This document shows, one piece after another, positions 29,342 to 44,509 of a DNA stretch of 64,000 bases (position 1 is the stretch's first letter; the number at the start of each line of letters is the position of its first letter). Source of the DNA: an uncultured virus (IMG/VR IMGVR_UViG_3300047315_000487) (lineage: Duplodnaviria; Heunggongvirae; Uroviricota; Caudoviricetes); IMG/VR virus record IMGVR_UViG_3300047315_000487; one strand, 5' to 3'. A program made the position numbers and the translations under genes. Below the pieces are notes generated by a model. The model made no database searches and was not told where the DNA came from. It was given only the letters and a program-made list of their open reading frames with translations.

Positions 29342-29484
29342 CGCCTCCGCTTGATCCGGTTGCGTTGCCGCTGCCGGTACTTGTGGCCGTCGACCGCGAG
29401 CACGAGCCCGACGTGCTTCGGCTTGAGGCGGTAGGCGCGCAGGATCTGCCGGACCAGCGGATCACTCGGATGCGGGATTGCCAT
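29338..29484 (-). CDS. Small basic protein (48 aa)
   Basis: Manual translation ending KYRQRQRNRIKRRR; overlaps next start. Confidence 0.45.
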   Translation of the reverse strand: MAIPHPSDPLVRQILRAYRLKPKHVGLVLAVDGHKYRQRQRNRIKRRR

Positions 29485-29530
29485 GCAGCCAGTATGCGAC
29501 TGGCCGCCGGCGGTCCCCGCAGGTTAAGCG

Positions 29531-30046
29531 TCAGCCCAGCTTCGCCACTGCCGCCTTGTAGTCGCCCGCCTGTGCTGGAGTGAGGAACCGCGAGACCCGA
29601 ACCACAACAGAACCGTGGACGTAGTCGTACTCGGCGAGGGCGGGCATGCTCTTCCCGATGGCCTGGATGTACTTCGCGCGCGCCTCCGCGCCACTCGCAT
29701 CGCCGAACACCTCGATCGCACCCCCGAGCTCCACGTCGCCCTTCTTGAAACCGTCGGCGTCGCTCTTGGAGATGCGGGAGTCGGTGAACGTCACCTTCGA
29801 CGCGTACTGGTTGGGGCGGCCCAGAAGGTGGTTCGGGTCGTTCTCGGCCGTGACAGTGCTGGAGAGCGTGGCTGACGGCACCGACCCGGCGATGGCTTCG
29901 AGAGCAGTCGCGGCGGTGAGCGGCTTGGCGATGCTCGACTTCGCTGCGGCAGGACTGGCGGGGGCGCTGGACGTCGTGGTCGTACTGGAGCAGCCGGCGA
30001 GCAGGATGACGGCGGCGCATGCGGTGGCGGCGAGGGCGTTTCTCAT
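29531..30046 (-). CDS. Lipoprotein
   Basis: LAGC lipobox; Ser/Thr linker; DPNHLLGRPNQY domain. Confidence 0.8.
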   Translation of the reverse strand: MRNALAATACAAVILLAGCSSTTTTSSAPASPAAAKSSIAKPLTAATALEAIAGSVPSATLSSTVTAENDPNHLLGRPNQYASKVTFTDSRISKSDADGFKKGDVELGGAIEVFGDASGAEARAKYIQAIGKSMPALAEYDYVHGSVVVRVSRFLTPAQAGDYKAAVAKLG

Positions 30047-30304
30047 GACGGCAGATCATTCACCCAAGTGGGGCCGGACTGGGGCATTCCCGCAAATCCG
30101 TGACCTCACCGTGTCGCTCCCGCCACACTCATCCTCATGGCGGTCGCACTGTGGGCGTTGGGTGATGACGAGGCGGAGTTGGCTGAGTGGCTGGCTGCTC
30201 ACGGCATGCTGCCGGTGGGCCAGCCGGTGCACGGGATCACGGCGCGGGCCCGGCTGATGCAGCGCTGCGAGCCACGGGGCGGCGACGGCGAGCCCGAACA
30301 CGGC

Positions 30305-30331
30305 TGAGGCCCCCGCTTTCGGCGGGGGCCT
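30305..30331 (-). terminator. Hairpin at end of transfer operon
   Basis: GAGGCCCCCGC / GCGGGGGCCTC 11-bp stem. Confidence 0.5.
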
Positions 30332-30348
30332 CGACGGTGCGGGGCGGG

Positions 30349-30807
30349 CTACTTGCTCCTGGACCGGCTGCTCGCCCGGGCGTTCCCGCCGGTGGCGTTG
30401 ACGTTGACGCTGACGTGGACGTTCTGGCCGGACTTGGATCCGCCGCCCTTGACGAGCATCACGAGCGCACCCAGCCCGGCGCAGGTGGCTGCCACGCCGA
30501 TGCCGGCCATCTCGGCGGCGTGACCGGCTTGGGACAGTCCGGGTCCGTAGTGGCCGATGACGCCGAGGACCGCGGCGGTGGATGCCCCGCCGGCGAGCAT
30601 CCGCGTGGGCCACGGGTCGCGCTCGTGCACTACCGGGGGCGGTCGGTCGGCCTCCTGGTCGGGTGGGAGGTAGGCGAGGACGCGGTCGCCGTTGGGTGCG
30701 AGTGCCCACACCATGCCGGGCGGCGCCTTCTCCACGCGCGGGGGTGCGTCGGGGTCGTAGTCGTCGATGGTGGGCCACCCGGGGGGCGGCTGATGGGCGG
30801 TGCTCAT
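30349..30807 (-). CDS. Membrane protein, Spd-like spreading protein candidate
   Basis: Two hydrophobic segments; downstream of traB. Confidence 0.6.
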   Translation of the reverse strand: MSTAHQPPPGWPTIDDYDPDAPPRVEKAPPGMVWALAPNGDRVLAYLPPDQEADRPPPVVHERDPWPTRMLAGGASTAAVLGVIGHYGPGLSQAGHAAEMAGIGVAATCAGLGALVMLVKGGGSKSGQNVHVSVNVNATGGNARASSRSRSK

Positions 30808-30847
30808 GGCTGCCTCCTGGGCGGCGTCGGCGTACTGGTGGGCGGGG

Positions 30848-31072
30848 TTACTTGGCGACGGAGTTGACGGTCTCGCTGGTCGTCTTCACGCCGGTGCCGA
30901 TGATGCTCTGGACCTTTTCGACGCCGGAGGCGCCCCACGGGGTGGCGACGATGAGGATCCAGAGCAGCGAGACGGCGAGGAACTCGCGCTTGCGGAAGCT
31001 GGAGTCCTTCTTCATCCAGATGCCGAGGCCGATGGCGACCAGCGTGAACAGGGCGGTGGTGGTCATGGTCAT
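30848..31072 (-). CDS. Small two-TM Spd-like protein
   Basis: AGGAG RBS; ALFTLVAIGLGIW / LAVSLLWILIVATPWG. Confidence 0.65.
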   Translation of the reverse strand: MTMTTTALFTLVAIGLGIWMKKDSSFRKREFLAVSLLWILIVATPWGASGVEKVQSIIGTGVKTTSETVNSVAK

Positions 31073-31094
31073 GGTTCTTCTCCTGGTGGGTTGG

Positions 31095-33665
31095 TTAGGC
31101 GCTGACGGGTTCGGTGTCGAGGGGTTCGGCGGTGTGCCAGTCCTGCTGCTTCTTGGCGAGCTTTCCGAGGCGTTCCAGGCGTGCGGTGGCGTTGGCGACG
31201 TTGTTCGGCTTGAGGTCGGTGACTTCGGAGATCTGCTTGTTGCGCCGGGCGCCGCCGTCGACCGCATGCCAGACGAGGTGGGAGCGGGTGGGCGGCACGA
31301 GCTCGTCGAGGTCGTCGTCTTCGAAGTCCTCGCCGGCCACGGATGTGGTCTTCGTGTCGATGACCGTGGTGTGCTTGCCGGTCCTGGCTTCCTCGTCCTT
31401 GACGAGGTCGCGGAGGAACGCTTCCTCTTCGGCGGCGTCCAGGTGCCGGTACTCCTCGCGCCGCAGGTAGGCGATCCCGGCCGGGCCGGCTGCTGCTGCC
31501 GCGTCGGCCTCGCGTCGGGTCAGTGTCTGTACGGGGAACTGGCGGGCGATGCGGGCCGGGTTGGTGTGGAACATGGCCCTCGACTGCGTGTACTGCGCTT
31601 TGCCGTCGGCGATGTAGAACAGGCCGCCGGTCTCGGAGCCGTCCGGGAAGCGTTCGGGCAGGGATGCGAGGCGGAACTCGGGGGTGCGGGAGCCGAGCGA
31701 CATGATGTCGACGTCGGAACGCGCGGTGCGGAAGAGGGCGATGTTCCCGGACTGGAGCATGTCGCGGATGGCGTTGGCGCTGGCGTCGGAGCCGATGGAG
31801 TCCAGGTTGGGGATCTGCACCCACACCCGGGCCGCGATGCCCGCCGCGCGGGACAGGCGGCCGACGCTGGACACGGACCGCAGGAGCGGCTTGACATGGT
31901 CGGCCTGCGGGTCCTTGAGGATCATCTCGTTGAACTCGTCCCAGGTGGCGACCATGGGGGCGAACGGGTCGTTCGGGACGAAGAAGCTGCGGCCGTTCTC
32001 GGTGAACCCTTCGTCATCCAGCCACTGCAGCTTCATCTGCTCGGCGTACCGGTACTCGCTGACCGCATTGGCGGCCTGCCCCATGAGCATGGCGCCGTAG
32101 GGCGACTTGAGGAGCCAGTCGAGCTCCGACATCCACGGCGCGTAGCCGGCGCCGCCCTTGCCGTCGGCAAGCCAGGAGATGAACCCGTTCATGCGCTGGG
32201 CGACCTGCAGGTCTTCTTCGAGGGAGGTCTTGCCGGCGCCGGTGGTGCCGGACCCGAAGGAGTGCACCGCCGAGGCGGACGACTGCCCGGACAGGCCGCG
32301 GCGCTTGGGGTCAAACTTCAGCAGCCGCCACTTCGCGGGGCGCCCGTAGACGTCCTTGCCGACGGTGATGTAGCCCTGGTCGTCCATGCGCAGGGCGTCC
32401 AGGTCGAGGGGCACGCCGCCCTGCAGCGGGTTGACGGTCATCTCGTTGACCTCGATGCGGCGGGCATCGAGGACCCGCAGGTGCAGGCGGGACACGGCGT
32501 CTTCGCCTGCAAGGTCGAGGGCTTGGGCGATGGCGCGCGGCTGCACGTCGGCGACCGAGGAGCCACGGCGCGGCATGAGGATTTTGAAGCGGCGCCCGGT
32601 CTCGGTCTTCTCCGGGTCGTACAACTCGCTGCCGCCGTAGGGGCTGTACTCGTTCCACACCGCGGCCAGGTCGCCCATGTCCAGTTCGACGGTTTTGGTG
32701 CGCAGCCGCACGGTCAGCTTGGCCCGGTTGGCGGCCATGTCGTCGGGCCGGTAGACGTTCACGGCCCGCGGCGGCACCCCGAACGCGATGCTGATGGAGT
32801 CCTGGTCGACGCCCAGTGCGGGCTTGGCCGTCGTGGAGACGATGACCGCGGTGAGCTTGTCGGCGTCGAGGTCGATGCTGACGAGCTTCGATGCGGGCAG
32901 CGGGCCGCCGTCGCAGGCGATCCATTCCGCCCACCGGGCCAAGTACCAGTCCGCCGTCGCCGCACGGGCCTTCTTCGGGTCTGCCGCGTCGGGCTTGTGC
33001 CATATCCGGGCACCCCATCCGGCAGCGATGGAGCCGACCGCGAGGTGCGCCCACCAGGGCAGCTCGACGAACCCGGCCGCGGGGATCGCCGCGAGCGGAC
33101 CCGCCCGCAGCGCCATCTCGACGGCCGTGTACTGGCGCCACCAGCCGGACTCCCAGTCGGGCAGGTACTTCGCCCAGGCGGTGCGCAGGTGCTTGCAACG
33201 CATCCGGTGCGCCTCGGCGGTCGCTGCGCGCACCAGGGCAGGCCGGTCGTCACGCTGACGCCAACCGTCGGCGATCCCGACAACCGGCACGAACAGCCCG
33301 TTGCCACCCACGGCCGGGCCGTGCGAGTGGTCCTGTGCGAGGCGGCTGCGCATGCGGCGGACCTTGCGCCGGTAGCCGCGGTTACTGCTGCGGCACAGCC
33401 ACTCCCACGGCTCCCCCTGCCCGGGCAGCCAGCGCCACGGACCGGGGTTCATGCCGAGGCCCGCCCAGCCGGCGGCGAGACCGGTGGTTCCGAGGGTGGC
33501 GAGCAGCAGCGGTTCGCCGGTGAGGCATCCGGAGGCGACGCCCAGCCCGGCGCCGAGGTACAGGCCGGGGTTCTGCATCTGGTCGATGCGGGCGCGCAGG
33601 CCGGTCAGCTCCTGCGGCTGCACCTCGGTCTTGGCGTCGGTCTTGGTTAGGGTCGGCGTTGCCAT
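31095..33665 (-). CDS. traB: TraB-like FtsK/SpoIIIE conjugative DNA translocase
   Basis: N-terminal TM segments; GTTGAGKT Walker A; ADGKGG; WDEF Walker B; RLSRAAGI; C-terminal wHTH-like segment. Confidence 0.75.
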   Translation of the reverse strand: MATPTLTKTDAKTEVQPQELTGLRARIDQMQNPGLYLGAGLGVASGCLTGEPLLLATLGTTGLAAGWAGLGMNPGPWRWLPGQGEPWEWLCRSSNRGYRRKVRRMRSRLAQDHSHGPAVGGNGLFVPVVGIADGWRQRDDRPALVRAATAEAHRMRCKHLRTAWAKYLPDWESGWWRQYTAVEMALRAGPLAAIPAAGFVELPWWAHLAVGSIAAGWGARIWHKPDAADPKKARAATADWYLARWAEWIACDGGPLPASKLVSIDLDADKLTAVIVSTTAKPALGVDQDSISIAFGVPPRAVNVYRPDDMAANRAKLTVRLRTKTVELDMGDLAAVWNEYSPYGGSELYDPEKTETGRRFKILMPRRGSSVADVQPRAIAQALDLAGEDAVSRLHLRVLDARRIEVNEMTVNPLQGGVPLDLDALRMDDQGYITVGKDVYGRPAKWRLLKFDPKRRGLSGQSSASAVHSFGSGTTGAGKTSLEEDLQVAQRMNGFISWLADGKGGAGYAPWMSELDWLLKSPYGAMLMGQAANAVSEYRYAEQMKLQWLDDEGFTENGRSFFVPNDPFAPMVATWDEFNEMILKDPQADHVKPLLRSVSSVGRLSRAAGIAARVWVQIPNLDSIGSDASANAIRDMLQSGNIALFRTARSDVDIMSLGSRTPEFRLASLPERFPDGSETGGLFYIADGKAQYTQSRAMFHTNPARIARQFPVQTLTRREADAAAAAGPAGIAYLRREEYRHLDAAEEEAFLRDLVKDEEARTGKHTTVIDTKTTSVAGEDFEDDDLDELVPPTRSHLVWHAVDGGARRNKQISEVTDLKPNNVANATARLERLGKLAKKQQDWHTAEPLDTEPVSA

Positions 33666-33692
33666 CCGGTTCTCTCTCCGATCTGCGGGTGG

Positions 33693-33726
33693 GAAGGGCG
33701 GGGTCACGGCTATGGCCCCGCCCTTC
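33693..33726. promoter_or_regulatory. 14-bp stem hairpin immediately upstream of traB
   Basis: GAAGGGCGGGGTCA / TGGCCCCGCCCTTC. Confidence 0.45.
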
Positions 33727-33741
33727 GTGGCGGTGTGCCTG

Positions 33742-34134
33742 CTACTGGCGCTTGATGAATTCGCGGTCGGCCATCTGCACGTTGTGGGTGCGGTTGGCGT
33801 CCTGCATCCGCCCGTGCTGGGCCCTGGTCTCGGACTCCAGGCCCTGGGCGTTGACGGTCAGGGAGTCGGAGGCGGAGACGATCGAGCCGACGTTGCCTGC
33901 CGCCGCCGTCCCGAGCCGGGAGACCTCCATGTAGGCGGTCGTGGTGGGCTCGTCGACGTCCAGCCGGGTCATGGCCTCGGACAGGTACCGGGCGGAGTCG
34001 GCCCGGTCTTCGTACCGGGCCTTCATCCGCTCGACGGCCGCCTTGGTGAGCGCGGCTCGGGCGATGTAGGCGCCCGCCCGGGCGAGGACTGCGGCAACGG
34101 TGACGACCGACCTGGTGTTCGTGGATGTGCTCAT
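33742..34134 (-). CDS. Helical TraA-like transfer-associated protein
   Basis: All-helical 130 aa upstream of traB; ends HGRMQDA..MADREF. Confidence 0.55.
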   Translation of the reverse strand: MSTSTNTRSVVTVAAVLARAGAYIARAALTKAAVERMKARYEDRADSARYLSEAMTRLDVDEPTTTAYMEVSRLGTAAAGNVGSIVSASDSLTVNAQGLESETRAQHGRMQDANRTHNVQMADREFIKRQ

Positions 34135-34136
34135 GG

Positions 34137-35294
34137 TCAGGCCGCCTTCGTCTCGTAGACCTCGGTGTGGGCCTGGGTGTCTTCGGCGTCGACCGCGTCG
34201 GAGATGTAGGCCTCGCGCTCGGCGACGTCCTCCATGTCCTTGGCGATGTCGGCGTAGACGCCCTGACCGGCTTCCAGTAGCGCCTTGGCTTTCACCACGG
34301 CTTCGCCTTGGGCGATGGTGTTCTGCTGCAGGTCGTCGACCTCGGCGTGGATGACCCCGTAGTTCTCCTTGCAGCGGACCACCCAGGCGATGACCTTCTC
34401 GCCGAGGCCGGTGGCTTTCGCGGCGGCGATGAGGGCGTCGCCTCGGCCGATCTCGCGCTCGGCGCGGGCGCGGATCCGGTCGTAGACCCGCACGTCGTCG
34501 TCGCACATGATGGAGAGTTCGTCGCTTTCCTCCATGACGGATTCGTAGGTGACTTCTGCTGCCATGCGGCCAGCTCCGTTCTTGACGTCCTGGGGTGTCG
34601 TCGTGTCAGCGGTTCCGGCGGTGGCCGGTTCGGGCTCGGGGGCGGTGGGGGCCGACGCGACAGCGGGGCCATCCGTGGTTTCTTCGGGGACCGTTGAGGC
34701 CTCGGGGGCTCCGGCGGTAGTGCTTGTGTCATCCGCGGTGGGCTCCGTGGTCCCGTCGGACACCTCGGGCTTCACCAAGGTCACGCCGCCACTCACGTTG
34801 CTGCCGCCACCGACTGTCGGCGGGTGGGTCGGCATCGGCGGAACGACCAGCGTCGGCTGACCGACAGGCACCGGGACCAGGACCGGCGCCGGGTCGGGCT
34901 GACCCGCGGCGCGCCGGCTCTTGCGGTACTGCCTCAGGGCGCCGCGTCCGGTGTCCTTGACCCAGCCCACGCCCGTGGCCGTGAAGTGGCCGGCGTGGCG
35001 CCCGATCGGGGTCGCGACCCGGGCGACCGGGGTGTGGCTGCGGTAGCCCGACCGGAACGCCTCGGGGATGGTGACGGGGGTAGCCGCCGCGGGCGGTTCC
35101 TTCCACGGCGAGACGCCCACAGGGTTCTGCGGGACTGTCGTGCCGTGTTTCTCGGCGATCTGCCGCACGGCCTTGTCGTGCCGGGTCTGCTCACGCATGA
35201 TTTCGCGCTGCGCCGGGCTGATGCCCAGCTTGGCCTGTTCGCTCTGCGCCCCTGCAACCCATGCCAGCAGGCAGGCGGCGAGCAAGACTTCCAT
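34137..35294 (-). CDS. Membrane-anchored transfer-associated protein with helical C-terminal domain
   Basis: Hydrophobic N-terminus, Pro/Thr linker, helical C-terminus. Confidence 0.6.
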   Translation of the reverse strand: MEVLLAACLLAWVAGAQSEQAKLGISPAQREIMREQTRHDKAVRQIAEKHGTTVPQNPVGVSPWKEPPAAATPVTIPEAFRSGYRSHTPVARVATPIGRHAGHFTATGVGWVKDTGRGALRQYRKSRRAAGQPDPAPVLVPVPVGQPTLVVPPMPTHPPTVGGGSNVSGGVTLVKPEVSDGTTEPTADDTSTTAGAPEASTVPEETTDGPAVASAPTAPEPEPATAGTADTTTPQDVKNGAGRMAAEVTYESVMEESDELSIMCDDDVRVYDRIRARAEREIGRGDALIAAAKATGLGEKVIAWVVRCKENYGVIHAEVDDLQQNTIAQGEAVVKAKALLEAGQGVYADIAKDMEDVAEREAYISDAVDAEDTQAHTEVYETKAA

Positions 35295-35411
35295 TACCTC
35301 TCCTCACGGTTGGTGACCGGGAGCGGGTGAACGTCTGCCTCGCACGCGCATGTACGCGTATAGGGCATCGCGACGTTCACTCGCAACCCGAGTGAATGAA
35401 TGAGTGAACGA

Positions 35412-35600
35412 TCACCGTGAGTAGCGGTCGGTGATCTGCTGAAGGGCATCGGCGACCTCCCGCCACGCACGGTTGGCGACCACCGGATCGGCCTTGCGCA
35501 GCACCCCGCGCAGCCGGTCCAGGCGCTTGGCCGCACCCTCCTTCGGGGAGCGCCCGTCCGCCTTTCGGATCTCCTTGATCCAGAACGCGGATCCGCCCAT
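35412..35600 (-). CDS. Small basic helical protein
   Basis: GAGGAGAGG RBS. Confidence 0.55.
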   Translation of the reverse strand: MGGSAFWIKEIRKADGRSPKEGAAKRLDRLRGVLRKADPVVANRAWREVADALQQITDRYSR

Positions 35601-35696
35601 CGGGAACCTCTCCTCTCTCGTCGGTTCGGGTGGTGCTCGCGGCCGTGGAGAGCTGCAGGTCAGAGAACTGGGGCTCGATCGTCATCAGCAGTCCCC

Positions 35697-36467
35697 TCAG
35701 TCCAGGGCCGGGAGTTCGGTGCGGTCGAGGATCTCCGCGCGGATGGACTTGGCCCGGGAGGCGGAGACGCTGCCGAACCCACCAGCGTCGATCGCATTCG
35801 CGAACTCGGATGCAGTGGGGTTGCGGCGCAGGCGCGCAAACTCCGCGCGGAAGATGGGCCCAGCGAGATCGACCCATTGATCGATCGAGCGACGCTGCGC
35901 CTTCTTGCTCGTGCGCGATCGAGCGCTGCGCGCGTTTGCCCTGGTCGGACGCTTTGCCGTGACGCCAACGCGGTGCCGCGGCCCCTTCTCTGCGATGAAG
36001 TGGACGACGTCCGGGGTTAGCTCGAACCACTCACTGTCGGCCACCCGGTGGGCGCCGAACTTCGCGTGTAGCGCCCGCTCCAGATCGGTTCCGCCGTGGA
36101 GCAGAAGCAGTACCGCGTCTTCACGGAGCGACAGGGAGGAGATGCGGTTGAACAGGGACTTCGTGTAACCGATCTTGACCCGGCCGCCGTTCGCCATGAA
36201 GTACACCAGCGCCGAATGCGGGTCGGTCGCCGGCATCGGCGCAGCCTGTGCGCTCGACACCAGGTGCGCCACAGCCGGCGGCAGCGTCCGGCTGCTCACT
36301 GCGCGCGCATCGCGGAGCGCGGCGGCGAGAAGCTCCGGTGTCACCGCGGCGGCGACTTGAAGCTTGTGCTCATCGCACAGGCGAACCGGCACGGCCAGGC
36401 TCGCGGCGTGGATGCACGCTGCGCCGTCCTGCTGCGCCTGGCACATGGTCTCGTGGTTCACGATCAT
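35697..36467 (-). CDS. T5orf172/MUG113 (GIY-YIG superfamily) protein with C-terminal HTH-like domain
   Basis: VYF..VKIGYT..ERALHAKF..SEWF. Confidence 0.72.
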   Translation of the reverse strand: MIVNHETMCQAQQDGAACIHAASLAVPVRLCDEHKLQVAAAVTPELLAAALRDARAVSSRTLPPAVAHLVSSAQAAPMPATDPHSALVYFMANGGRVKIGYTKSLFNRISSLSLREDAVLLLLHGGTDLERALHAKFGAHRVADSEWFELTPDVVHFIAEKGPRHRVGVTAKRPTRANARSARSRTSKKAQRRSIDQWVDLAGPIFRAEFARLRRNPTASEFANAIDAGGFGSVSASRAKSIRAEILDRTELPALD

Positions 36468-36483
36468 CCTTCGGTTCGGCGGT

Positions 36484-37491
36484 TCAGTTGTGGCGCTGGG
36501 ACCAGTTGGCCCGCGCCTCGACGAGTCGGTTGTAGGCGGTGGTCTTCGACATGCCGGTGCGCTCCTGGACGAACCCGAGCTTCACTTCGTCGTAGCCGTG
36601 CTCCTCGATGAGGTTCAGGACTTCGCGAACCTGCTCCTCGGGCGAGGCCGTGTCGTTGGTTCCGGCAGGTTCGGCGATGGGCCGCTTGGGCTTGTCGCGC
36701 TTGGTTCGCGCCGTGGTTCGCCGCGGTTGGCGGACGGTGGTTCGCCGGGGCCGGTTCGCGGGTTCCGGGGCGGCCTGAACCTCGGGTTCGGGACCAAGTT
36801 CCGGGGCCGGTTCCGAACCGGGTTCGCCAGCCTCCGTCGACTGGTTCGCCGGGGGCTCCGGAACCGGGTTCGCGGACAGGTTCGCCGCGGCCTCCTTGAG
36901 CGCGTCCGGGAGCTCGATGCCGAGGATGTAGGCGCGGTAGATGGCCCAGGTTCCGGACCGGTCGACGAACCACCGGAGCAGGTGCACGCGCGGTCGCTCG
37001 CTGCCGTCCCGGCGGGCAGCTGCCGCGCGGGCCTCGGACATCAGGCCCTCGAAGAGGATCACGGCGGCGGGCGGCATGAACGCGGCGATCCAGCGGCCGG
37101 TCGGGTCGGTGATGTGCTCCCAGTTGATCCAGCTCGACAGCGCGGTGAACACGACGATCAGCAGCCGCCACAGCGACGCGCCGCGGGCGTTGATGCTCGC
37201 GCGGAACACGACCAGTGACAGGCCGGCCGCGGCGCCGTCGAAGGTGATGGGGACGAGCCAGGCGGTGTCGGCGTTCAGGCCCATGTGGGTCATGCCGAAG
37301 TTGTGCAGGCCGATGAACGATGCGGTCCAGCCGGCGAGGGCGACGATGAGGACGACGACGAAGCCGGTGATGCCCAGGCCTGTGTCGCGCGCCCAGTTGC
37401 CGACGGCGCGCAGGCGGTCGGCGGCCGTGGTCGTCGCGCGCGGTTCGGGCACGTCGATTCCCGGCTGGGCGTCGGCCTGGTTGGCGGTCAC
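36484..37491 (-). CDS. DUF2637 / SpdA-like membrane protein with C-terminal HTH
   Basis: ASFIGLH, AWLVPITFDG, NWEH, MPP motifs; four TMs; TGMSKTTAYNRL. Confidence 0.75.
   Translation of the reverse strand: MTANQADAQPGIDVPEPRATTTAADRLRAVGNWARDTGLGITGFVVVLIVALAGWTASFIGLHNFGMTHMGLNADTAWLVPITFDGAAAGLSLVVFRASINARGASLWRLLIVVFTALSSWINWEHITDPTGRWIAAFMPPAAVILFEGLMSEARAAAARRDGSERPRVHLLRWFVDRSGTWAIYRAYILGIELPDALKEAAANLSANPVPEPPANQSTEAGEPGSEPAPELGPEPEVQAAPEPANRPRRTTVRQPRRTTARTKRDKPKRPIAEPAGTNDTASPEEQVREVLNLIEEHGYDEVKLGFVQERTGMSKTTAYNRLVEARANWSQRHN
36703..36886 (+). repeat. Eight co-oriented GGTTCGC[C/G] 8-mers (clt/TRS-like)
   Basis: Copies at 36703, 36715, 36739, 36753, 36821, 36843, 36867, 36879. Confidence 0.7.
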
Positions 37492-37525
37492 GTCGGTCTC
37501 CTTCATGCGGTGGGGGTGGGGTGGG

Positions 37526-37771
37526 TCAGTGCTCGGTGCTCTGGTCCTTGGCGACGGTCGTCTTCGCGCGCTGCCAGCCGGCCCACAGGTGGCCGAGGCC
37601 CATGTAGACGCCGGTGAAGCTGGACAGTCCCGCGAACAGGCCCACGGTGAACGGCAGGTGGTGCAGGTACATCTCGCGGCCGAGGAGGGTGGCGAAGAAC
37701 AGGGCGATCGCGGCGAAGATCCAGTAGACGATGCTGTCGTCACGGTCCTCGGTGGGCTTGTCGGTGGTCAC
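37526..37771 (-). CDS. Small two-TM membrane protein
   Basis: Two hydrophobic helices; GAGAGGA RBS. Confidence 0.65.
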   Translation of the reverse strand: MTTDKPTEDRDDSIVYWIFAAIALFFATLLGREMYLHHLPFTVGLFAGLSSFTGVYMGLGHLWAGWQRAKTTVAKDQSTEH

Positions 37772-37853
37772 GGCGGTCCTCTCATGGACGGGTCGGGGTC
37801 GCTAACCGTTCTCCTTGGTGCTCACCCCGGGGGCTGAGCACCGCGGGCAGTGG

Positions 37854-38033
37854 TCAGCGGCCGAAGCCCCACTTGATGACGGCGGACACGGTGTCGGTCT
37901 GGTCGGTGACCTTGCCGGAGTCGAGTTCGTCGGCGCGGGCCTCCAGTCGGTCGGCGGAGTCCTTGCGGCCGGCGCCCCTCTGGCGGTCGGCTTCGGTGCG
38001 ATTCGCGGCGGCGGCGCGGGTCATGCGGGACAT
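37854..38033 (-). CDS. Hypothetical protein (59 aa)
   Basis: Manual translation MSRMTRAAAAN...KWGFGR; GAAGGA RBS. Confidence 0.5.
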   Translation of the reverse strand: MSRMTRAAAANRTEADRQRGAGRKDSADRLEARADELDSGKVTDQTDTVSAVIKWGFGR

Positions 38034-38172
38034 GAGGGTCCTTCCGGGTCGGGCGGGTGGGGCGGAGGTGGTGCACCGTCACCCCGAGCCGCGGGGGAAC
38101 ACCCCGGGGTGACGGCGGTTCTTGCCGGGCTTGGCGGGTCGTCGGAGCGGTAGTCCGCGAAACCCGGCGGTC

Positions 38173-38631
38173 TCAGGTGACGATCGGCCGCTCGATGTGG
38201 CGGTGCTCGACCTCGCACGAGATGTCTGCCGCACGGAGGTGCACAGCGATTTCCTCAGCCACGGCAACCGAACGGTGGCGACCTCCCCCACAGACCGCGT
38301 GGACGTCCACCCGGTACTGCTGCGGGCCGCCGGTCCACTGCCGGAGGTTGTCGCGCTGCAGCAGGATGCGGACCTTCTCGGCCGACTGCGCCACCAGTTC
38401 CTTCGCGCCCGGCGTCGCCATGACGTACCGGCGGACTTCCGGATCCAGGCCGTTGGAGCGCAGCATCCGTTCGCGGACCTCGGGGTCCTCGGGCGGGTTG
38501 CGCAGGATGCGGGTGTCGACGTGAAGGGCGGTTCCAGTGGGTGCGTCGTGGTGGAGGTCGCCGTAGGAGGTGATGACGGCCGCCACGTGCCGGTCGTCGT
38601 AGAGGGCGCTGAGGTCGTTCGGGGTTCCCAT
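38173..38631 (-). CDS. Stand-alone RapZ C-terminal-like domain protein
   Basis: ITSYG..H..DTRILRNP and VCGGGRHRSVAVAE..VEHRHI match RapZ-CTD motifs. Confidence 0.7.
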   Translation of the reverse strand: MGTPNDLSALYDDRHVAAVITSYGDLHHDAPTGTALHVDTRILRNPPEDPEVRERMLRSNGLDPEVRRYVMATPGAKELVAQSAEKVRILLQRDNLRQWTGGPQQYRVDVHAVCGGGRHRSVAVAEEIAVHLRAADISCEVEHRHIERPIVT

Positions 38632-38635
38632 GGGG

Positions 38636-38800
38636 TCAGTCGCCGTAGTTCTCGGGGAGTCCGTGGCGTCGGAGCCACTCGCTCTCCATGGAGTTGGAGC
38701 CCTGCAACTCGTAGTAGGCGCGGGCGTCGTTGACCTCGTCGTCGGTCATCTCGCCGGAGGTCTTCGGGTACCAGGACTGCTTGGTGTGGTCGGTGCTCAT
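38636..38800 (-). CDS. Hypothetical protein (54 aa)
   Basis: Manual translation; GAGAGGA RBS. Confidence 0.5.
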   Translation of the reverse strand: MSTDHTKQSWYPKTSGEMTDDEVNDARAYYELQGSNSMESEWLRRHGLPENYGD

Positions 38801-38836
38801 GGGGTTCCTCTCGGATGCGTCGGATGGTCGGGCTAG

Positions 38837-39136
38837 TCAGACGAGCTGCAGGTCTTCGTTGGCGTCGTACAGCAGGCGGTCGGCCTGGGTGAGCAGCCGC
38901 TTCCGGGTCTTGGTGTCCTTCGCCCCGAGGTGCTGCACGGCGCGGAGGATGTCGGCGGCTCCGGTCAGGCATTCGCGTTCGTAGCCGAGCGGGCTGAGTC
39001 GGTTGAGGACCGCGCCCAGGAGGTCGGCGAAGCCGGCCTCGGTGCAGTCGTCGGCGTCGAGGGTGATACCGACGGCCTCGGCGATCGGGGCGGCGTAGTC
39101 GGCGATCAGGGTGTCGACGGTGATGGGCTTGGTCAC
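38837..39136 (-). CDS. Hypothetical protein
   Basis: GGAG RBS; operon context. Confidence 0.6.
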   Translation of the reverse strand: MTKPITVDTLIADYAAPIAEAVGITLDADDCTEAGFADLLGAVLNRLSPLGYERECLTGAADILRAVQHLGAKDTKTRKRLLTQADRLLYDANEDLQLV

Positions 39137-39153
39137 GGGGTCTCCGGTCGGGT

Positions 39154-39378
39154 CTAGTAGGCGGGGCCGTCGACCTGGCGGACGTACAGCCGCACACCGG
39201 GGTGTTCGGCCTGGGTGCGCAGTACGTCCTGGACGATGCTGTTGAGGGATCCCGGGCCGCCGACACCGCCGAAGCTGAGGAGCTCTCCGGTGGCGTCGTT
39301 GTAGACCCGGTAGTTCATGTCGACGTCGGAGGTGTCCTTGCGATCCGGGAGGGACTTGCCGTTCCAGCGGTCGGCCAT
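39154..39378 (-). CDS. Hypothetical protein
   Basis: GGAGG RBS; coupled to upstream ORF. Confidence 0.55.
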   Translation of the reverse strand: MADRWNGKSLPDRKDTSDVDMNYRVYNDATGELLSFGGVGGPGSLNSIVQDVLRTQAEHPGVRLYVRQVDGPAY

Positions 39379-39502
39379 CACCGGCCTCCCTGCTGGCGTC
39401 GGGCGTCCTCGATGGCCTTCTGGGCGCGCGCGATCTCGGCCATCCGCTGACGGGTCTGCTCGGCCAGCGCGCGGGCAGCGGCGCCCTGATCGGATGCGGC
39501 GC

Positions 39503-39733
39503 TCACTTGAGCTCACCCCCGTCGAGCTCCCGGTTGACGCCCCCGACGAACGCGACCTTCATGGCCGGGGTCATCCGGTACGTGGTCTGCCAGAACGCGC
39601 CACGCTCGTCCTGGCTCGTCAGGGTGAGCAGGCCGCCACCATCGGGGGTCTCCTCGACCTTGAACATCGTCAGGTCGTCGATCAGCGGGGCCGGGGCCGC
39701 GGCGGCGCCGGGCTGGATCGCGTACACGATCAC
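39503..39733 (-). CDS. Hypothetical protein
   Basis: Protein-like C-terminal part of listed ORF. Confidence 0.5.
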   Translation of the reverse strand: MIVYAIQPGAAAAPAPLIDDLTMFKVEETPDGGGLLTLTSQDERGAFWQTTYRMTPAMKVAFVGGVNRELDGGELK

Positions 39734-40015
39734 CACCCCCGCACGGCGGCGGCCAGTCGACGCAGCGCCCTGGCGAGTGCGAGCCTCGGCGGCAGATCCG
39801 GAATGATCGGCGGGAGGCCGCTCATCGCGCACCCCCGGGCTGCTCGCCGTGCTTGGCGGCGTTCCCCGACGCGTCCTGGTAGGCGGCCTGGTAGTGGCCG
39901 ACACTCCCGGCCGACGGGTGACCGGGCGTGGCCTGGATCTCCACGATCCGCGCGGCCAGACCGTTGGCACGGTTCTGCTCCTCGGCCGCGAACGCCGGAG
40001 ACGGAAGGTCGGCGG

Positions 40016-40264
40016 TCACCGGACGCCTCCCACCGCGAGTTGGTTGGGCTCCAGCGAGAAGAACAGGAGGCTGAACGCTCCGAACTCCTCCTGCATCTGC
40101 TTCAGCAGGAACCGGTAGCACTCCGCTCGCGTATTCCCGGGCGGCACCATCAGGAAGCCGTCGCGGACGCTCGCGAGGCCGCCACGGGCCTGGATCGAGA
40201 TGATGTAGTGGTACTCCACGGCCTGCGAGTCCTGGGCGGTGGGCTGCTCGGTCGCGGCGATCAC
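40016..40264 (-). CDS. Hypothetical protein
   Basis: GTGA-coupled ORF. Confidence 0.55.
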   Translation of the reverse strand: MIAATEQPTAQDSQAVEYHYIISIQARGGLASVRDGFLMVPPGNTRAECYRFLLKQMQEEFGAFSLLFFSLEPNQLAVGGVR

Positions 40265-40647
40265 AGCGCACCGGCCATGGCGCGCTCGGCGGTGACCTCG
40301 GCACGGAACTGCCGGTCGAGGTCGTAGCCGATGACGTAGTTGAACTCGCTGTCGGCCTCCAGGTACGGGGTGGCCTCCAGCAGCCGGCTCATCGCGGCGG
40401 CGAGCACCGGCGTCGGGATACGGCGGGCGGTCGAGGCGAACGACTCGTACACCTCGAAGTCAGCGGCCTGCCAGTCGGCGACCGGAACCTCGGCGGTCAG
40501 TGCGCCGGCGTCGGCGGTGTGGAACACGATCGGCGCGAACACCTGAGCGGACGGCTTCGGCGGGTTCGAGGCACCCGGGGTGCGCTTCGGGAGAGGTGCG
40601 GCGGACATGGCGGGGGTGGTCGGGCGGAGGGCGGTGGCGGTGGTCAT
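40261..40647 (-). CDS. Hypothetical protein
   Basis: ATGA-coupled to Xis-like gene. Confidence 0.6.
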   Translation of the reverse strand: MTTATALRPTTPAMSAAPLPKRTPGASNPPKPSAQVFAPIVFHTADAGALTAEVPVADWQAADFEVYESFASTARRIPTPVLAAAMSRLLEATPYLEADSEFNYVIGYDLDRQFRAEVTAERAMAGAL

Positions 40648-40913
40648 GATGCAAGCTCCTCAAGCTCAGTGACAAGGCAGTCGTTCCGGTACGCCTGCAC
40701 CACTGCCTCCGGGATCCGGATAGCGCCTCCGCGCCGGGGGTCGCCTTCGGGTCGGGGCTGGCCGTACCGGATGGCAGGCAGCTCGCCGTTGGCGATCCAG
40801 CGGTAGACGGTCGGCTTGGAGACGCGCAGAACCTCTGCGGCCTCCCGCACGGTCAACAGGTTTGGGCTGGCGGGCAGCATCTGGCGCTCCAATCCAGGAG
40901 TAGGGGCGAGCAC
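40644..40913 (-). CDS. Excisionase-family (HTH_17) DNA-binding protein
   Basis: LLTVREAAEVLRVSKPTVYRWIANGELPAIR..IRIP. Confidence 0.85.
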   Translation of the reverse strand: MLAPTPGLERQMLPASPNLLTVREAAEVLRVSKPTVYRWIANGELPAIRYGQPRPEGDPRRGGAIRIPEAVVQAYRNDCLVTELEELAS

Positions 40914-40916
40914 TCC

Positions 40917-40948
40917 TCAACTGTAGGTGCTGTCTTGAGAAGTCACAA
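40917..40948 (-). promoter_or_regulatory. sigma70-type promoter for xis/transfer operon (probably leaderless)
   Basis: TTGTGA-17 nt-TACAGT, 6 nt before the GTG start. Confidence 0.6.
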
Positions 40949-41062
40949 CCTTCTCGCATGCCTGAACCGCTCCCGTAAGCCCCGCGCCACCTTTTGAACT
41001 GCGCTTATGGTGGTGAAAGTGTTGGATGCCTCAAGAGAAGTCGCCTACTAGAGGAGCTGGAC

Positions 41063-41599
41063 ATGGCCGACGCACACTGGAAGGGGTCGTCGACGCCCTA
41101 TCTGAGCGATGGGCAGGGTGATGTCTGGCAGCAAGAAGCAGCAGCTCTGGGGCGTTCTGGCACTCAGCGGATTACCTGGGCTGGCGAGACGGAAGCGCCA
41201 GAAGAGATCAGGGCCGCGCTCGGCCTAGCCGCCGGCTCGGGCGTGATTGCGCGACAACGGCTCATCCTTCTGGATGAGCAACCGATCGAACTCGCGAACT
41301 CCTACTGGCCCAGCAATGTGGCGGGCGGCACCAATCTGGCGCAGCCCCGCAAGATACGCGGGGGCGCCGTGTCGCTGCTCGCCGATCTCGGCTACCGGCC
41401 CGCGTCCGTTGACGAGCAGATCCGAACCCGTCCACCAACGGAAGAGGAGATGCGCGCCCTGGAACTCACCGATGCGCACGAGTGGGTTCTCACCCTTACT
41501 CGCGTCATCGCCAATGATCACGGTCGGCCCTACGAGGTGTCAGTCATGGTCAACCCCGGCCGCATTGGGCGGCTCCACTACTCAATGAAGGTCGACTGA
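41063..41599 (+). CDS. UTRA-domain-only protein
   Basis: RQRLILLDEQPIELANSYWP, RPPTEEE motifs; no N-terminal HTH; GAGGAG RBS. Confidence 0.8.
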   Translation: MADAHWKGSSTPYLSDGQGDVWQQEAAALGRSGTQRITWAGETEAPEEIRAALGLAAGSGVIARQRLILLDEQPIELANSYWPSNVAGGTNLAQPRKIRGGAVSLLADLGYRPASVDEQIRTRPPTEEEMRALELTDAHEWVLTLTRVIANDHGRPYEVSVMVNPGRIGRLHYSMKVD

Positions 41600-41600
41600 C

Positions 41601-42365
41601 ATGGCAAACGAGAACGAGGACGAGGCCACCGTCTGGTCAACGCAAGACCAGATCGCTGCCTACCTGCGCGACGGGATCCTGTCAGGCGACTTCCCGCCGG
41701 GCAGCAAGCTCCCTTCCAGCAGAGACCTGACCGAGCGGTTCGGCGCTGCCGCGCAGACCATCCGCAACGCGGTGCTCACTCTCACAGCGGAGGGCCTCGT
41801 CTACTCGCGACAGGGCTCGGGCGTGAAGGTCCGCGAGCATCCGCAACGGACCATGGAGCCGGCGAGCTACAAGACGCCACCCTCCGCCGGAGGGAAGTAC
41901 CAGTGGATCAGTGCGGCCGAGAAGAAGGGCTCGTCCGGCAGTAGTGAGTTGCTTGTCGTCGAGGAGGTCGTCCCTCCCGTGGCCATCCGCGAGGCGCTCG
42001 GCCTAGCCGACGGCGAGTCGGCGCTGCTGCGGCGACAGGTCCTGTTCCTTGATGACAAGCCGTGCGAACTGGTCGAGGTGTACGTGCCGCTCGATCTGGC
42101 TCGTGAGACCGCCATCGCCGCGAACCGGAAGATCAGGGGTGGGGTGGGGCGAGTGCTTGCGGAGGCCGGGTTCCCCCCGTTGCGATGCGTGGACAAGGTG
42201 TCGGCTCGCTGGCCCACGCCGGAGCAGGCTCGGGCCCTGAAGATGCCCACCAAGCTGCCGGTGCTGCGCACCTTCCGGGTGACGTACAGCGTGGACGACA
42301 GGCCCATCCAGGCGGAGATCATGGCGAAGGCGGGCCACCTGTACGAGTTGCAGTACGAGTTCTAG
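41601..42365 (+). CDS. GntR/HutC-family repressor (KorSA-like)
   Basis: GDFPPGSKLPS..L..EGLVYSRQGSG wHTH plus UTRA; divergent from transfer operon. Confidence 0.88.
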   Translation: MANENEDEATVWSTQDQIAAYLRDGILSGDFPPGSKLPSSRDLTERFGAAAQTIRNAVLTLTAEGLVYSRQGSGVKVREHPQRTMEPASYKTPPSAGGKYQWISAAEKKGSSGSSELLVVEEVVPPVAIREALGLADGESALLRRQVLFLDDKPCELVEVYVPLDLARETAIAANRKIRGGVGRVLAEAGFPPLRCVDKVSARWPTPEQARALKMPTKLPVLRTFRVTYSVDDRPIQAEIMAKAGHLYELQYEF

Positions 42366-42373: not shown

Positions 42374-42401
42374 AAGCCCCGGCGCGCAACGCCGGGGCTT
42401 T
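42374..42401 (+). terminator. Intrinsic terminator
   Basis: AAGCCCCGGCG / CGCCGGGGCTT followed by T. Confidence 0.65.
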
Positions 42402-42426
42402 GCTGTGCCCGAGACAAATGAGAGCA

Positions 42427-42458
42427 TTGCAACTTCTCTAGGAACCTCTTACAGTTGA
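42427..42458 (+). promoter_or_regulatory. sigma70-type promoter homologous to the xis promoter
   Basis: TTGCAA-17 nt-TACAGT. Confidence 0.6.
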
Positions 42459-42500
42459 CCCCGGAAGGTGGCCCACGCCACACGCACCGTAAGGAGCGGC

Positions 42501-42815
42501 ATGCCCGAAACCCCCGAGCGCACCGCGCTCTACCGGCTCTACGACGCCGAAGATCAGTTGCTGTACATCGGGATCTCCAGCAGCCCTACGCGGCGTTGGC
42601 GGCAGCACGAGCGGGACAAGGGGTGGTGGCCGCAGGTCGCCAAGCTCGTCATGGTGTGGCTCGACTCCCGTCTGGACGCGCAGTCGGCAGAAGGGCACGC
42701 GATCAAAGCCGAGGGGCCATTGCACAACGTGATTGGCACCAAGGAGGAGGAGTCCGAAGTGGCGGTCGAGAACGAGCCCATGGTCTTCAACATGCTCGAC
42801 TTCCCATGGGCGTAG
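42501..42815 (+). CDS. Small GIY-YIG nuclease-family protein
   Basis: ALYRLYD..LLYIGIS..RRW.QH..E..AI..P.HN; AAGGAG RBS. Confidence 0.78.
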   Translation: MPETPERTALYRLYDAEDQLLYIGISSSPTRRWRQHERDKGWWPQVAKLVMVWLDSRLDAQSAEGHAIKAEGPLHNVIGTKEEESEVAVENEPMVFNMLDFPWA

Positions 42816-42868
42816 CCCCCGCCCCCGCCCCCACCCCACCCCGTCCCCGAAAGGAGGTAGCCCCAGTG

Positions 42869-43117
42869 TCACGCTTCCGTGTACGCCACGACGATGACCA
42901 TGCCCAGCGTGGTCGCGTAGTAGATCACGCGGGCGGTGCCCTGCCGGTAGTCACGGAGGGGGCTGTTCGGGAGCGGTTCGCCGATCTTCGGGTCGAGGGA
43001 GATCGCGACGAGCAGCGGGTCAAGGCGCTGCAGCTCGGCGTCGCTCATGAGGGCGAGTTGCCGTTCGGCTACTTCGTGGAAGGTGACGAGGGCGCGCCGG
43101 GGGCCGTGCTTAGGCAA
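42869..43117 (-). CDS. Putative RelE/ParE-fold toxin
   Basis: 82 aa; VTF..AERQL..DP.IG..LRDYR..RVIY; overlaps upstream small gene. Confidence 0.55.
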   Translation of the reverse strand: MPKHGPRRALVTFHEVAERQLALMSDAELQRLDPLLVAISLDPKIGEPLPNSPLRDYRQGTARVIYYATTLGMVIVVAYTEA

Positions 43118-43316
43118 CGTTGTGTGCCTCGTCTTCGAGGGGCGGCAGGCCGCGCTCGGCGCGGATGTCTTCCCAGGGCCGGCACTTCTCCAGATCGATG
43201 CCTTCATCGGCTAGCTGGAGGAGGACGTAGGCGAGGGAGGGATTGCCGGGGAATTCGGCTCGGGCCGCGTCGCGCAGCCCGTCGGCCTCTTCAGGGTCGA
43301 AGACGATGTGTGCCAC
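43110..43316 (-). CDS. Putative cognate antitoxin
   Basis: 68 aa, acidic, PWEDIRAERGL near C-terminus; upstream of toxin-like gene. Confidence 0.55.
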   Translation of the reverse strand: MAHIVFDPEEADGLRDAARAEFPGNPSLAYVLLQLADEGIDLEKCRPWEDIRAERGLPPLEDEAHNVA

Positions 43317-43373
43317 GGCGGCCTCCCGGTTGCGGTGTCATTCCAAGCTAGCGCAGGAGAGGGGGTGAGAGGG

Positions 43374-44460: not shown

Positions 44461-44478
44461 CACTCCAGAACGTAGCAA

Positions 44479-44509
44479 CGGCCGGGCGGTGAACCAGGCC
44501 GCCCGGCCG
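44479..44509. terminator. Hairpin between convergent genes
   Basis: CGGCCGGGCGG / CCGCCCGGCCG. Confidence 0.55.

Follow-up and report, generated by a model that had tools for sequence, protein, structure and literature searches.

Why does a tailed phage carry a DNA pump with the gene setting of a Streptomyces plasmid transfer region? The question is raised by a 64,000-nt stretch of an uncultured Caudoviricetes virus (IMG/VR record IMGVR_UViG_3300047315_000487), which was analyzed over its whole length and is called the window here. At 30.3-42.4 kb the window contains a leftward operon, co-oriented with the late genes, that encodes an FtsK-type ATPase (the pump) and is faced by a gene for a GntR-family repressor. 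On balance, and with moderate confidence, we favor the reading that this module is of plasmid origin, accessory to a temperate Streptomyces tailed phage, and serves to move double-stranded DNA. Plasmid-phages with transfer genes are already known as a kind of element. New here are a divergent, unnamed pump subfamily, a cassette common to large plasmids and several phage lineages, and, probably, judging from sequence comparison, recognition of the cargo via a membrane protein and an array of DNA words in its own gene rather than via the pump and a cis-acting transfer locus (clt).

The features of the module, read leftward from the repressor, are listed below (HTH, helix-turn-helix; ORF, open reading frame; GC3, frame analysis by G+C content at third codon positions).

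40917-40955 and 42420-42458: arms of an imperfect inverted repeat of 39 nt, 72% complementary, found by repeat search
41601-42365, plus strand: GntR-family repressor with a UTRA effector domain (Pfam GntR, E 1.9e-18; UTRA, E 1.4e-17)
40994-41599, plus strand: UTRA-only ORF of 201 aa (Pfam UTRA, E 2.7e-18), no recognized HTH
40644-40913, minus strand: HTH_17 (Xis/MerR-like) protein, first gene of the operon (Pfam, E 6.7e-16)
40261-40647, 40016-40264, 39503-39736, 39154-39381, 38837-39136 and 38636-38800, minus strand: small ORFs (GC3)
38173-38631, minus strand: RapZ C-terminal-domain-like protein (Pfam PapZ_C, E 6.6e-23)
37526-37771, minus strand: 81-aa membrane protein with a hydrophobic segment at residues 13-31
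36484-37506 (longest ORF to 37743), minus strand: DUF2637 membrane protein (Pfam, E 1.7e-36)
36550-36970: word array of GGTTC, extended as GGTTCGC, in the 3' half of the DUF2637 gene, a candidate clt-like or tether site
35697-36467, minus strand: T5orf172/MUG113 (GIY-YIG-like) nuclease-type ORF (MUG113, E 1.3e-9; T5orf172, E 2e-7)
35412-35600, minus strand: small conserved ORF or conserved DNA (GC3), coding frame uncertain
34137-35294, minus strand: 385-aa cassette protein, rich in Pro/Thr/Ala in the middle and acidic toward the C-terminus
33742-34134, minus strand: 130-aa protein of the cassette, encoded immediately upstream of the pump gene
31095-33665 (longest ORF to 33707), minus strand: pump ATPase P0001
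30848-31072, minus strand: 74-aa protein with two hydrophobic segments (1-19 and 31-49), directly after the pump gene
30349-30807, minus strand: 152-aa protein with a Pro-rich start and a hydrophobic segment at 101-119, last gene of the module

A sequence-only reading of the same DNA had described a GntR-UTRA repressor divergent from an operon with an Xis-like HTH protein, a DUF2637 protein and a small membrane protein with two segments, and all of these were recovered. The repressor also matches phrog_10724 (E 5.8e-44) and has homologs beside the cassette in the related loci L001, L002, L005 and L007; it is a candidate repressor of the TraR/Kor type. The UTRA-only ORF is its tandem paralog, the same pair is found in IMG/VR contig G003, and the inverted-repeat arms around the pair may be operator sites. 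The HTH_17 protein matches the excisionase-type families phrog_66 and phrog_2907. For the small ORFs at 38636-40647 no Pfam or PHROG matches were found; homologs of the ORF 39154-39516 occur downstream of the cassette in L022, L027 and L028, and weak homologs of the RapZ-like protein near it in L001, L004, L005 and L023. The G+C content of the module (0.69-0.71) is similar to that of the structural region.

Two names given in the sequence-only reading had to be dropped. First, it called the 385-aa and 130-aa proteins TraA-like, which Pfam does not support. The 385-aa protein has 24 homologous ORFs in related loci (38-76% identity) and no family match in Pfam, PHROGs or NCBIfam, and the ESM Atlas gave no named family. 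The 130-aa protein has 26 homologous ORFs; in a small database, its family profile matches (E 1.5e-4) an ORF of plasmid pSV2 that bears the annotation 'conjugal transfer protein TraB', and the sole hint of a TraA relationship is an ESM Atlas lead (score 0.85) to a cluster with PF28214 TraA-like in 34% of its members. Second, the ORF at 35697-36467, taken for a helical transfer protein, is nuclease-like. As no tblastn match to it was found in any of 26 related cassette loci, it was probably inserted recently, as a selfish element, between the DUF2637 gene and the conserved core. An NCBIfam search with eight module proteins gave nothing meaningful.

What kind of ATPase is the pump? It is 870 aa long from the first GTG, or 856 aa from the start preferred by GC3, and contains the Walker A motif GSGTTGAGKT and the motif TWDEF; G492, K493, E591 and R660 are invariant across 60 aligned sequences. 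The family comprises 115 clusters (56-98% identity), the named members of which are all 'hypothetical protein' with no Pfam domain and come from Streptomyces, except for a single one from Streptacidiphilus. When 1.84 billion representatives were scanned exhaustively with HMMER, 125 proteins reached E <= 0.001. Among 39 remote relatives, PF01580 (FtsK_SpoIIIE) was detected in 24 (E <= 0.01; seven above the gathering score), and many of these relatives end in winged helices of MarR-(MarR_2), HTH_24- or FtsK_gamma type. The AlphaFold2 model of the pump has a mean confidence (pLDDT) of 79.6, exceeding 90 over most of residues 250-780; it is high at 250-780 and 800-865 and low in the N-terminal 250 residues. 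The C-terminal winged helix (808-859; pLDDT ~96) consists of three helices at 808-846 and a beta hairpin at 850-859. In a Foldseek search of PDB, the best match of the model was the coupling protein TcpA of Clostridium perfringens plasmid pCW3 (PDB 6o1w; E 2.1e-13), followed by FtsK motor domains (PDB 2iut and 6t8g among them; E 2.6e-12 to 8.5e-11), with TM-scores by target of 0.56-0.64. Identity to TcpA and FtsK is 13-17%, with differences in the N-terminal half and in the winged-helix tail, the likeness being one of superfamily and motor kind only. Based on the fold match and the remote relatives, kinship with FtsK is assigned, and the modeled pump is a divergent branch of single-domain FtsK/TcpA-type motors with a DNA-binding tail.

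The same search bears on whether the ATPase works instead in conflict or secretion, either as a HerA/FtsK-type defense or exclusion protein or as an EccC-like motor of a type VII secretion system with small helical substrates. EccC/EssC (E 8.1e-10 to 3.2e-6) and HerA-type ATPases and defense complexes (E ~1e-5 to 1e-4) are present in the Foldseek list, a neighbor gene on pSV2 weakly matches WXG100_2 (E 0.0064), and a Panacea-domain gene and nuclease-like ORFs are located nearby. However, TcpA and FtsK rank ahead of EccC, and EccC/EssC are built of three tandem ATPase domains with no DNA-binding tail; one ATPase domain with a DNA-binding tail is the TraB build. The comparison of 31095-33665 with EccC and FtsK, suggested with the sequence-only reading, thus came out on the TraB-like side. 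An array of sites in a membrane-protein gene plays no part in such models, and the cassette occupies the tra-gene position of plasmids pSV2 and pSLE1. A role in conflict or secretion is, in our judgment, highly unlikely.

If the pump moves DNA, how would that DNA be chosen? A k-mer scan of 28-43.5 kb gave a single outlier, the GGTTC array. GGTTC/GAACC is found in 21 copies at 36500-37000, compared to a mean of 1.32 per 500 nt and six in the next-highest bin; nine of the 28 copies of GGTTCGC in the window fall within 36625-36885. The longest DUF2637 ORF (36484-37743) contains 22 words, 16 as GAACC and six in the opposite orientation. The GAACC copies are distributed over the three reading frames as 6, 5 and 5, with the rare CGA codon used three times. 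Since the words occur in all frames, yield differing peptides and employ rare CGA, it is the DNA word that is conserved and not a peptide repeat.

The DUF2637 protein itself (~340 aa) has four hydrophobic segments. In its AlphaFold2 model, membrane helices (28-166) and a low-confidence linker (213-288) precede a three-helix C-terminal domain (289-339; pLDDT ~97), and the array covers residues ~179-311, mostly the linker modeled as disordered. The model had no significant Foldseek match, only short HTH-like pieces (E 2.6-4.2), and a full-text literature search for DUF2637 returned unrelated papers only. No homologs of the DUF2637, 81-aa and 152-aa proteins were detected at E 1e-5 in the 26 related loci. 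An equivalent gene is nevertheless found there, ~3 kb upstream of the pump gene, encoding two to four hydrophobic segments and a small C-terminal domain, and in 24 of the 26 loci it contains at least eight copies of its top 6-mer. The words differ between lineages.

CGTCAC or CCGTCAC: nine loci, all with a C-terminus of the 'VVLRHLRY...SYRQAV' type
GTGGCCA: L006, L007 and L026, with a C-terminus of the 'VVVRWLRYAMEPP' type
GGTCAC: L028, and L004 with seven copies only
CGAAAC(G): L030 and L032 (as top 6-mer), L030 and L039 (CGAAACG as top 7-mer)
CGGACCG: L024, 33 copies
CTCTCAC: L027
GGCTCA: plasmid pSLE1

The strongest array found belongs to L024 (4716-7394), where 33 CGGACCG (41 CGGTCC) lie in one membrane-protein gene upstream of the pump. 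Where the C-terminal domains of two loci are homologous, related words were shared by 50 of 106 pairs, versus none of the 170 other pairs, the pairs being phylogenetically non-independent. Between L023 and L024 a single position differs across the pump winged helix, although the word is CCGTCAC in the one and CGGACCG in the other. As the word tracks the C-terminal domain of the DUF2637-type protein and not the pump winged helix, the membrane protein itself is the likeliest reader of the array.

A precedent for such an arrangement exists in plasmid pIJ101. Its SpdA2 protein binds palindromes inside its own gene and, in the passages concerned, is said to affect segregational stability and not transfer or pock formation (Thoma et al., 2014, PMC4170104); it has been proposed as an interface between the DNA substrate and the translocation apparatus (passages in PMC4447253). 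In both cases the sites lie within the protein's own coding region, DNA binding by the DUF2637 protein being a prediction. However, SpdA2, as described in the same text, has 135 aa, its DNA-binding region is N-terminal, and its sites are two to three copies of a conserved 12-bp palindrome (sps), whereas the DUF2637 protein of ~340 aa has a membrane domain, a C-terminal three-helix domain and ~20 short, non-palindromic, lineage-specific words. No sequence relationship of the two was found, and the resemblance is one of logic only.

Where else does the cassette occur? By tblastn the pump matches 128 plasmids of Streptomyces and Kitasatospora. In eight of them (155-290 kb; Streptomyces sp. CdTB01 and S. 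albidoflavus included) the pump is 68-72% identical over at least 94% of its length, and two of these eight (L001 and L002) have the same neighbor genes, a divergent GntR gene upstream and ParAB elsewhere. The layout thus resembles that of Streptomyces plasmid transfer regions, as the sequence-only reading had held. About 100 further plasmids, pSV2 (NC_004934.1) among them, carry pump relatives of 25-29% identity annotated as winged-helix proteins; the pump family profile matches the 768-aa protein of pSV2 at E 3.2e-28 and the Tra protein of pSLE1 at E 1.8e-7. The order on pSV2 is that of the window: a DUF2637 gene (E 4.4e-45), other genes, the small 'TraB' ORF and the 768-aa relative. Large plasmids differ from the window in having ParAB and often a second canonical FtsK; the window has packaging, head and tail genes instead.

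A core of five genes (the small conserved stretch, the 385-aa and 130-aa proteins, the pump and the 74-aa membrane protein) was found in the 26 related loci, that is, in two plasmids, five IMG/VR loci and 19 species-representative genomes. The 74-aa protein has 25 homologous ORFs, and the stretch at 35412-35600, upstream of the 385-aa gene, is conserved over 61-88 aa in 23 of the 26 loci (tblastn). Four IMG/VR contigs of 54-92 kb (G002-G005) combine the cassette with their own genes for the large terminase subunit (TerL), portal, capsid and tape measure; their portal families (phrog_2662, phrog_12 and phrog_104) represent structural types unlike that of the window. Integrase genes are present in G003 and G005, and G004 has been classified as a provirus. 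In G003 and G004 the cassette sits between the early and packaging genes, and the order in G004 (tail genes, homologs of the window genes at 22365, 22810 and 25285, cassette, UTRA gene, early genes) is that of the window. In the 19 genome loci, 59 of 72 large flanking ORFs were scanned with Pfam, the other 13 being array-bearing membrane ORFs, and packaging or head genes were detected within 10 kb of the cassette in three (TerL in L025, portal in L027 and L028, capsid in L027); a Prim-Pol gene flanks the cassette in L037. In plasmid contexts (L001, at 23997-26393, as well as L030-L033 and L039) a second, canonical FtsK with FtsK_alpha, FtsK_SpoIIIE and FtsK_gamma domains (E ~1e-66) is encoded within a few kb downstream, and a DUF5131 (phage Gp37/Gp68) gene is also nearby; the phage-context cassettes have neither.

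This distribution and the SpdA2 precedent are relevant to another possible role of the cassette, namely maintenance: it could spread an extrachromosomal prophage among the compartments and spores of its own host with no movement between strains. SpdA2 acts on stability and not transfer (PMC4170104, in part), FtsK-type pumps clear DNA from closing septa (PMC4447253, in part), an array of sites for a membrane protein is reminiscent of those used for partition or tethering, and no ParAB was found among the window ORFs scanned. On the other hand, the integrating relatives (G003 and G005 with their integrases, the provirus G004) need no plasmid segregation, the large cassette plasmids already own ParAB, and a divergent GntR gene fits the Kil-Kor layout of transfer genes as presented in a section of PMC4447253. 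We consider a segregation system with no transfer between strains unlikely.

Is a phage with transfer genes new in itself? To our knowledge, the wider field regards phages as non-conjugative. A plasmid-phage, pZL12, was reportedly described by Zhong et al. in the Journal of Bacteriology in 2010. Passages in two later papers cite the Streptomyces plasmid-phages pZL12 and pFP4 as conjugative (PMC4170104, PMC3583192), and the transfer of pZL12 was tested according to statements in the papers citing it (PMC3583192, PMC4487206, PMC4170104). High homology and synteny to pZL12 are described for the plasmid pSLE1 (PMC4487206, in part). The plan of the window recurs in pSLE1 (NZ_LN831788.1), where a divergent GntR gene, small genes and a membrane-HTH gene bearing an array of words (18 GGCTCA in 500 nt) are followed by Tra proteins of 594, 127 and 774 aa, terminase and capsid; a tailed-phage gene set and a transfer locus, located there directly upstream of the terminase gene, are combined on one element. 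TerL, portal, tape measure and cassette likewise stand together in the 64-kb window. In contrast to pZL12 and pSLE1, the window represents a different phage lineage, as judged by the portal, which matches no Streptomyces plasmid, and another pump subfamily: the pSLE1 Tra protein is a distant relative (25% identity) that PF01580 barely matches (E 0.0063). In tblastn searches with it, no Streptomyces phage was matched in the phage collection, and pZL12 was not among the best 25 of 79 plasmid matches. ParAB is reported for pSLE1 in the text of PMC4487206; no ParAB or replication gene was seen in the window ORFs.

The other system to be compared is TraB of pSVH1 and pIJ101, which, in the sections of Thoma et al. 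(2015, PMC4447253) concerned, is a single FtsK-like translocase with a C-terminal DNA-recognition domain, with an adjoining GntR-type repressor gene and small membrane proteins in the same operon. The window shares the motor domain with Walker A and B motifs, the C-terminal winged helix, the adjoining GntR gene and the small membrane proteins. It differs in that the pump has no direct PF01580 match and no array of 8-bp repeats at its gene to be read by its C-terminal domain; the only array lies ~3 kb upstream, in another gene, and tracks the predicted DNA-binding domain encoded by that gene. The partner proteins have no recognizable Spd homologs.

Several results weigh against a transfer cassette of this kind. 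First, no direct match to the pump was found in Pfam, PHROGs or NCBIfam, and its best sequence match in PDB was at only E 0.84. The N-terminus is weakly hydrophobic (best 19-residue Kyte-Doolittle means of 1.32 at 67-85 and 1.26 at 196-214), and the AlphaFold2 helices at 47-83 and 195-236 have pLDDT below 60, which makes membrane anchoring uncertain. The earlier assignment to FtsK-family ATPases therefore holds for motifs, fold and C-terminal winged helix, and not for a direct family match or firm N-terminal membrane segments. Second, no TraB-type repeat array was detected between 400 nt upstream and 1500 nt downstream of the pump gene end in 26 loci; GAC-rich clusters near the gene end were considered as an array and rejected, as an acidic coding stretch explains them. 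With the pump winged helix near-identical despite differing words, the classical pairing of TraB and clt is not seen, and the co-variation of word and C-terminal domain rests on the non-independent pairs mentioned above. Third, deletion of spdA in pSVH1 left transfer and pocks unchanged, according to a passage in PMC4447253; a DNA-anchoring protein thus need not be essential. Finally, tblastn of the pump against 50,697 isolated-phage records gave no relative at E 1e-5 or E 10.

The latter result also concerns a role of the pump in the lytic cycle, for instance in spreading replicating DNA across hyphal cross-walls before lysis or in aiding genome entry. FtsK/SpoIIIE-like genes are mentioned in passing, with speculative roles, for isolated Streptomyces phages (passages in PMC13587820 and PMC11536984), and the late genes follow the module shortly downstream, in the same orientation. 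However, the pump family is missing from those isolated-phage records, the module has its own facing GntR repressor, common to plasmids, and the same cassette occurs on plasmids that have no lytic cycle. A lytic function thus receives very little weight from us.

Does the cassette belong to the phage at all? The genes on both sides are those of a tailed phage. The G+C content of the window DNA is 66-73%, and most genes are on the minus strand (GC3). The early and late genes were assigned as follows, TerL, portal and tape measure by Pfam and PHROG matches; a LuxR/sigma-like protein is also encoded among the early genes.

60979-63900, minus strand: DnaB with a LAGLIDADG intein, early gene
56358-57233: N6/N4 methylase, early gene
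48956-50308, minus strand: family-2 glycosyltransferase of 450 aa, early gene
20156-21631: TerL, late gene
17402-20125, minus strand: portal-MuF fusion of 907 aa, late gene
15796-17361: protease/scaffold, late gene
14131-15747: probable capsid gene, late gene
10500-11750: tail gene, late gene
5451-9320: tape measure, late gene
1985-5401: tail protein of 1138 aa, late gene
2-142: first 47 codons of an amidase (endolysin) gene that exits the left end, 46 of the 47 residues being shared with L059

The sequence-only reading saw here a complete-looking siphovirus; as the endolysin gene exits the left end and the early genes the right end, the window is an incomplete phage, the element extending past both ends. 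The placement of the module among phage genes stands (TerL, portal, tape measure and DnaB flank it), but its direct adjacency to the late genes does not, ~8.7 kb of other, mostly uncharacterized genes lying between module and terminase. All matches of the portal among isolated phages are below 32% identity; the same portal-MuF fusion is found, at 27% identity, in Arthrobacter phages Sonali and Mufasa8. Megablast of the module against the phage collection gave no match.

Depth is flat over 20-40 kb in the public runs X1, X2 and X3, and an X3 contig bridges 28741-31277; the best-matching public run may be the window's own source sample. A different picture, and a further point against the module as part of the phage, comes from run X4, where depth is 0.06-1.5 over 20001-30005, 7.6 in 30006-30672 and 12.7-24 (~16) from 30673 on, and a contig turns to unlike sequence at 30119, the cassette standing beside a different left neighbor. 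These data define the following feature.

30100-30140: left recombination boundary of the module (depth and contig switch in run X4)

Two more observations have the same direction: no pump is encoded by G006, the closest structural relative (a 47.5-kb fragment with late proteins 39-90% identical to those of the window, most above 65%), or by G007, a 52.8-kb contig rated complete. Nucleotide similarity between G006 and the window is limited to window 1647-26237. A clean insertion was ruled out as the explanation of the cassette gap in G006, as the early arm differs throughout. Around the module, and around 29-48.7 kb, the part missing in G006, no att-like repeats longer than 16 nt were found, and the window contains no tRNA genes, in agreement with the sequence-only reading that no att-like junction flanks the module. 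An actinomycete integrative and conjugative element (AICE), defined in a passage of PMC3218068 as a unit of 9-24 kb with Int, Rep and Tra, att repeats and usually a tRNA gene, is thus not what the window shows: there is no integrase or Rep in or beside the module.

Such data could also mean that the cassette is part of some plasmid or integrative element and not of the phage, the window being a composite (a prophage in a plasmid or the reverse) or a chimeric metagenome assembly. The same cassette on plasmids of 155-290 kb, the X4 depth of ~16 with 20-30 kb nearly absent and the contig departing at 30119, the closest structural relative lacking the cassette, and the presence on plasmids of 'early' genes such as DnaB, methylase and the WhiB of relatives fit this view. 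It is contradicted by the flat depth in X1-X3 with the X3 contig across the junction, by the lack of tRNA, integrase, Rep or att-like repeats around the module, by the G+C content that the module shares with the structural region, and by G003 and G004, where the cassette stands between early and packaging genes, as well as by the structural genes in all of G002-G005. A composite or a chimera seems quite improbable to us. The favored reading, a plasmid-derived cassette in a phage, is instead refined: because G006 has no cassette and the X4 copy a different left neighbor, the cassette is an exchangeable accessory moving between plasmids and phages, not a core phage part. Residence in the phage, as claimed in the sequence-only reading, is consistent with flat depth, the bridging contig and the four IMG/VR contigs, but not as a core part.

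Whether the phage integrates is the next question. No model match to an integrase, Rep or ParAB was obtained among 104 ORF translations of the window, some of them overlapping alternative frames; this, too, counts against the favored reading. However, in L059, which has the same amidase start, a tyrosine integrase is encoded ~2.8 kb past the amidase stop, ~3.5 kb beyond the left end of the window. The statement that the phage has no integrase is therefore valid within the window only. Locus L058, 95-97% identical over the DnaB region, has genes for a Gp3-like protein, an exonuclease and WhiB upstream; its Gp3-like protein (4162-5283; PF18897, E 2.8e-37) is from the family of recombination directionality factors of phiC31-type serine integrases, which hints that the lineage of the window integrates via a serine integrase. 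Both L058 and L059 are fragments (37-38% complete) with no pump. The DnaB intein spans ~residues 335-735, and the helicase of L058, 98-99% identical, is intein-free.

Between the early genes and the module lies a plus-strand block (42.4-48.7 kb; 42400-48750) of lower G+C content (0.66), with the following genes.

42468-42815, plus strand: GIY-YIG endonuclease
44523-44996, minus strand, and 46657-47073: Cro/CI-type HTH proteins
45001-45936: Bro-N/Ant antirepressor
47649-48254: Panacea (SocA-like) domain protein, followed by a 156-aa ORF

A DUF6907 gene is also present in the block, which resembles an immunity region with a possible toxin-antitoxin or defense pair and is missing from G006. A partial homolog of the glycosyltransferase at 48956-50308 adjoins the cassette of G003; the enzyme could modify the cell envelope or receptor. 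A promoter and terminator scan gave nothing useful.

How might the cassette work? On the favored reading, the GntR/UTRA repressor would hold the leftward operon off. Once active, the operon would supply a membrane-associated TraB-like ATPase of FtsK/TcpA fold, its two conserved partners and the small two-segment membrane protein. The C-terminal three-helix domain of the DUF2637 protein would bind the ~21 GGTTC(GC) words in its own gene and so anchor the element's DNA at the membrane beside the pump, which would drive phage or prophage duplex DNA into neighboring hyphal compartments or mating hyphae, as plasmid TraB does. A broader proposal is that temperate tailed phages of Streptomyces, integrating ones included, commonly possess working one-pump conjugation and so travel by two routes, in virions and from hypha to hypha as duplex DNA, with the cargo chosen by the array-reading membrane protein and not by the pump winged helix, that is, by a second kind of clt. 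We offer this broader view tentatively, as possible but rather doubtful.

As for the phages themselves, several unrelated lineages of Streptomyces phages, including some with integrases, have a DNA-pump cassette of plasmid type in common. Should this cassette be functional, genomes of phages with mycelial hosts could spread without lysis, passing receptor-based resistance; phages and conjugative plasmids would draw on a common pool of transfer modules, and the word array would be a concrete DNA site for cargo selection.

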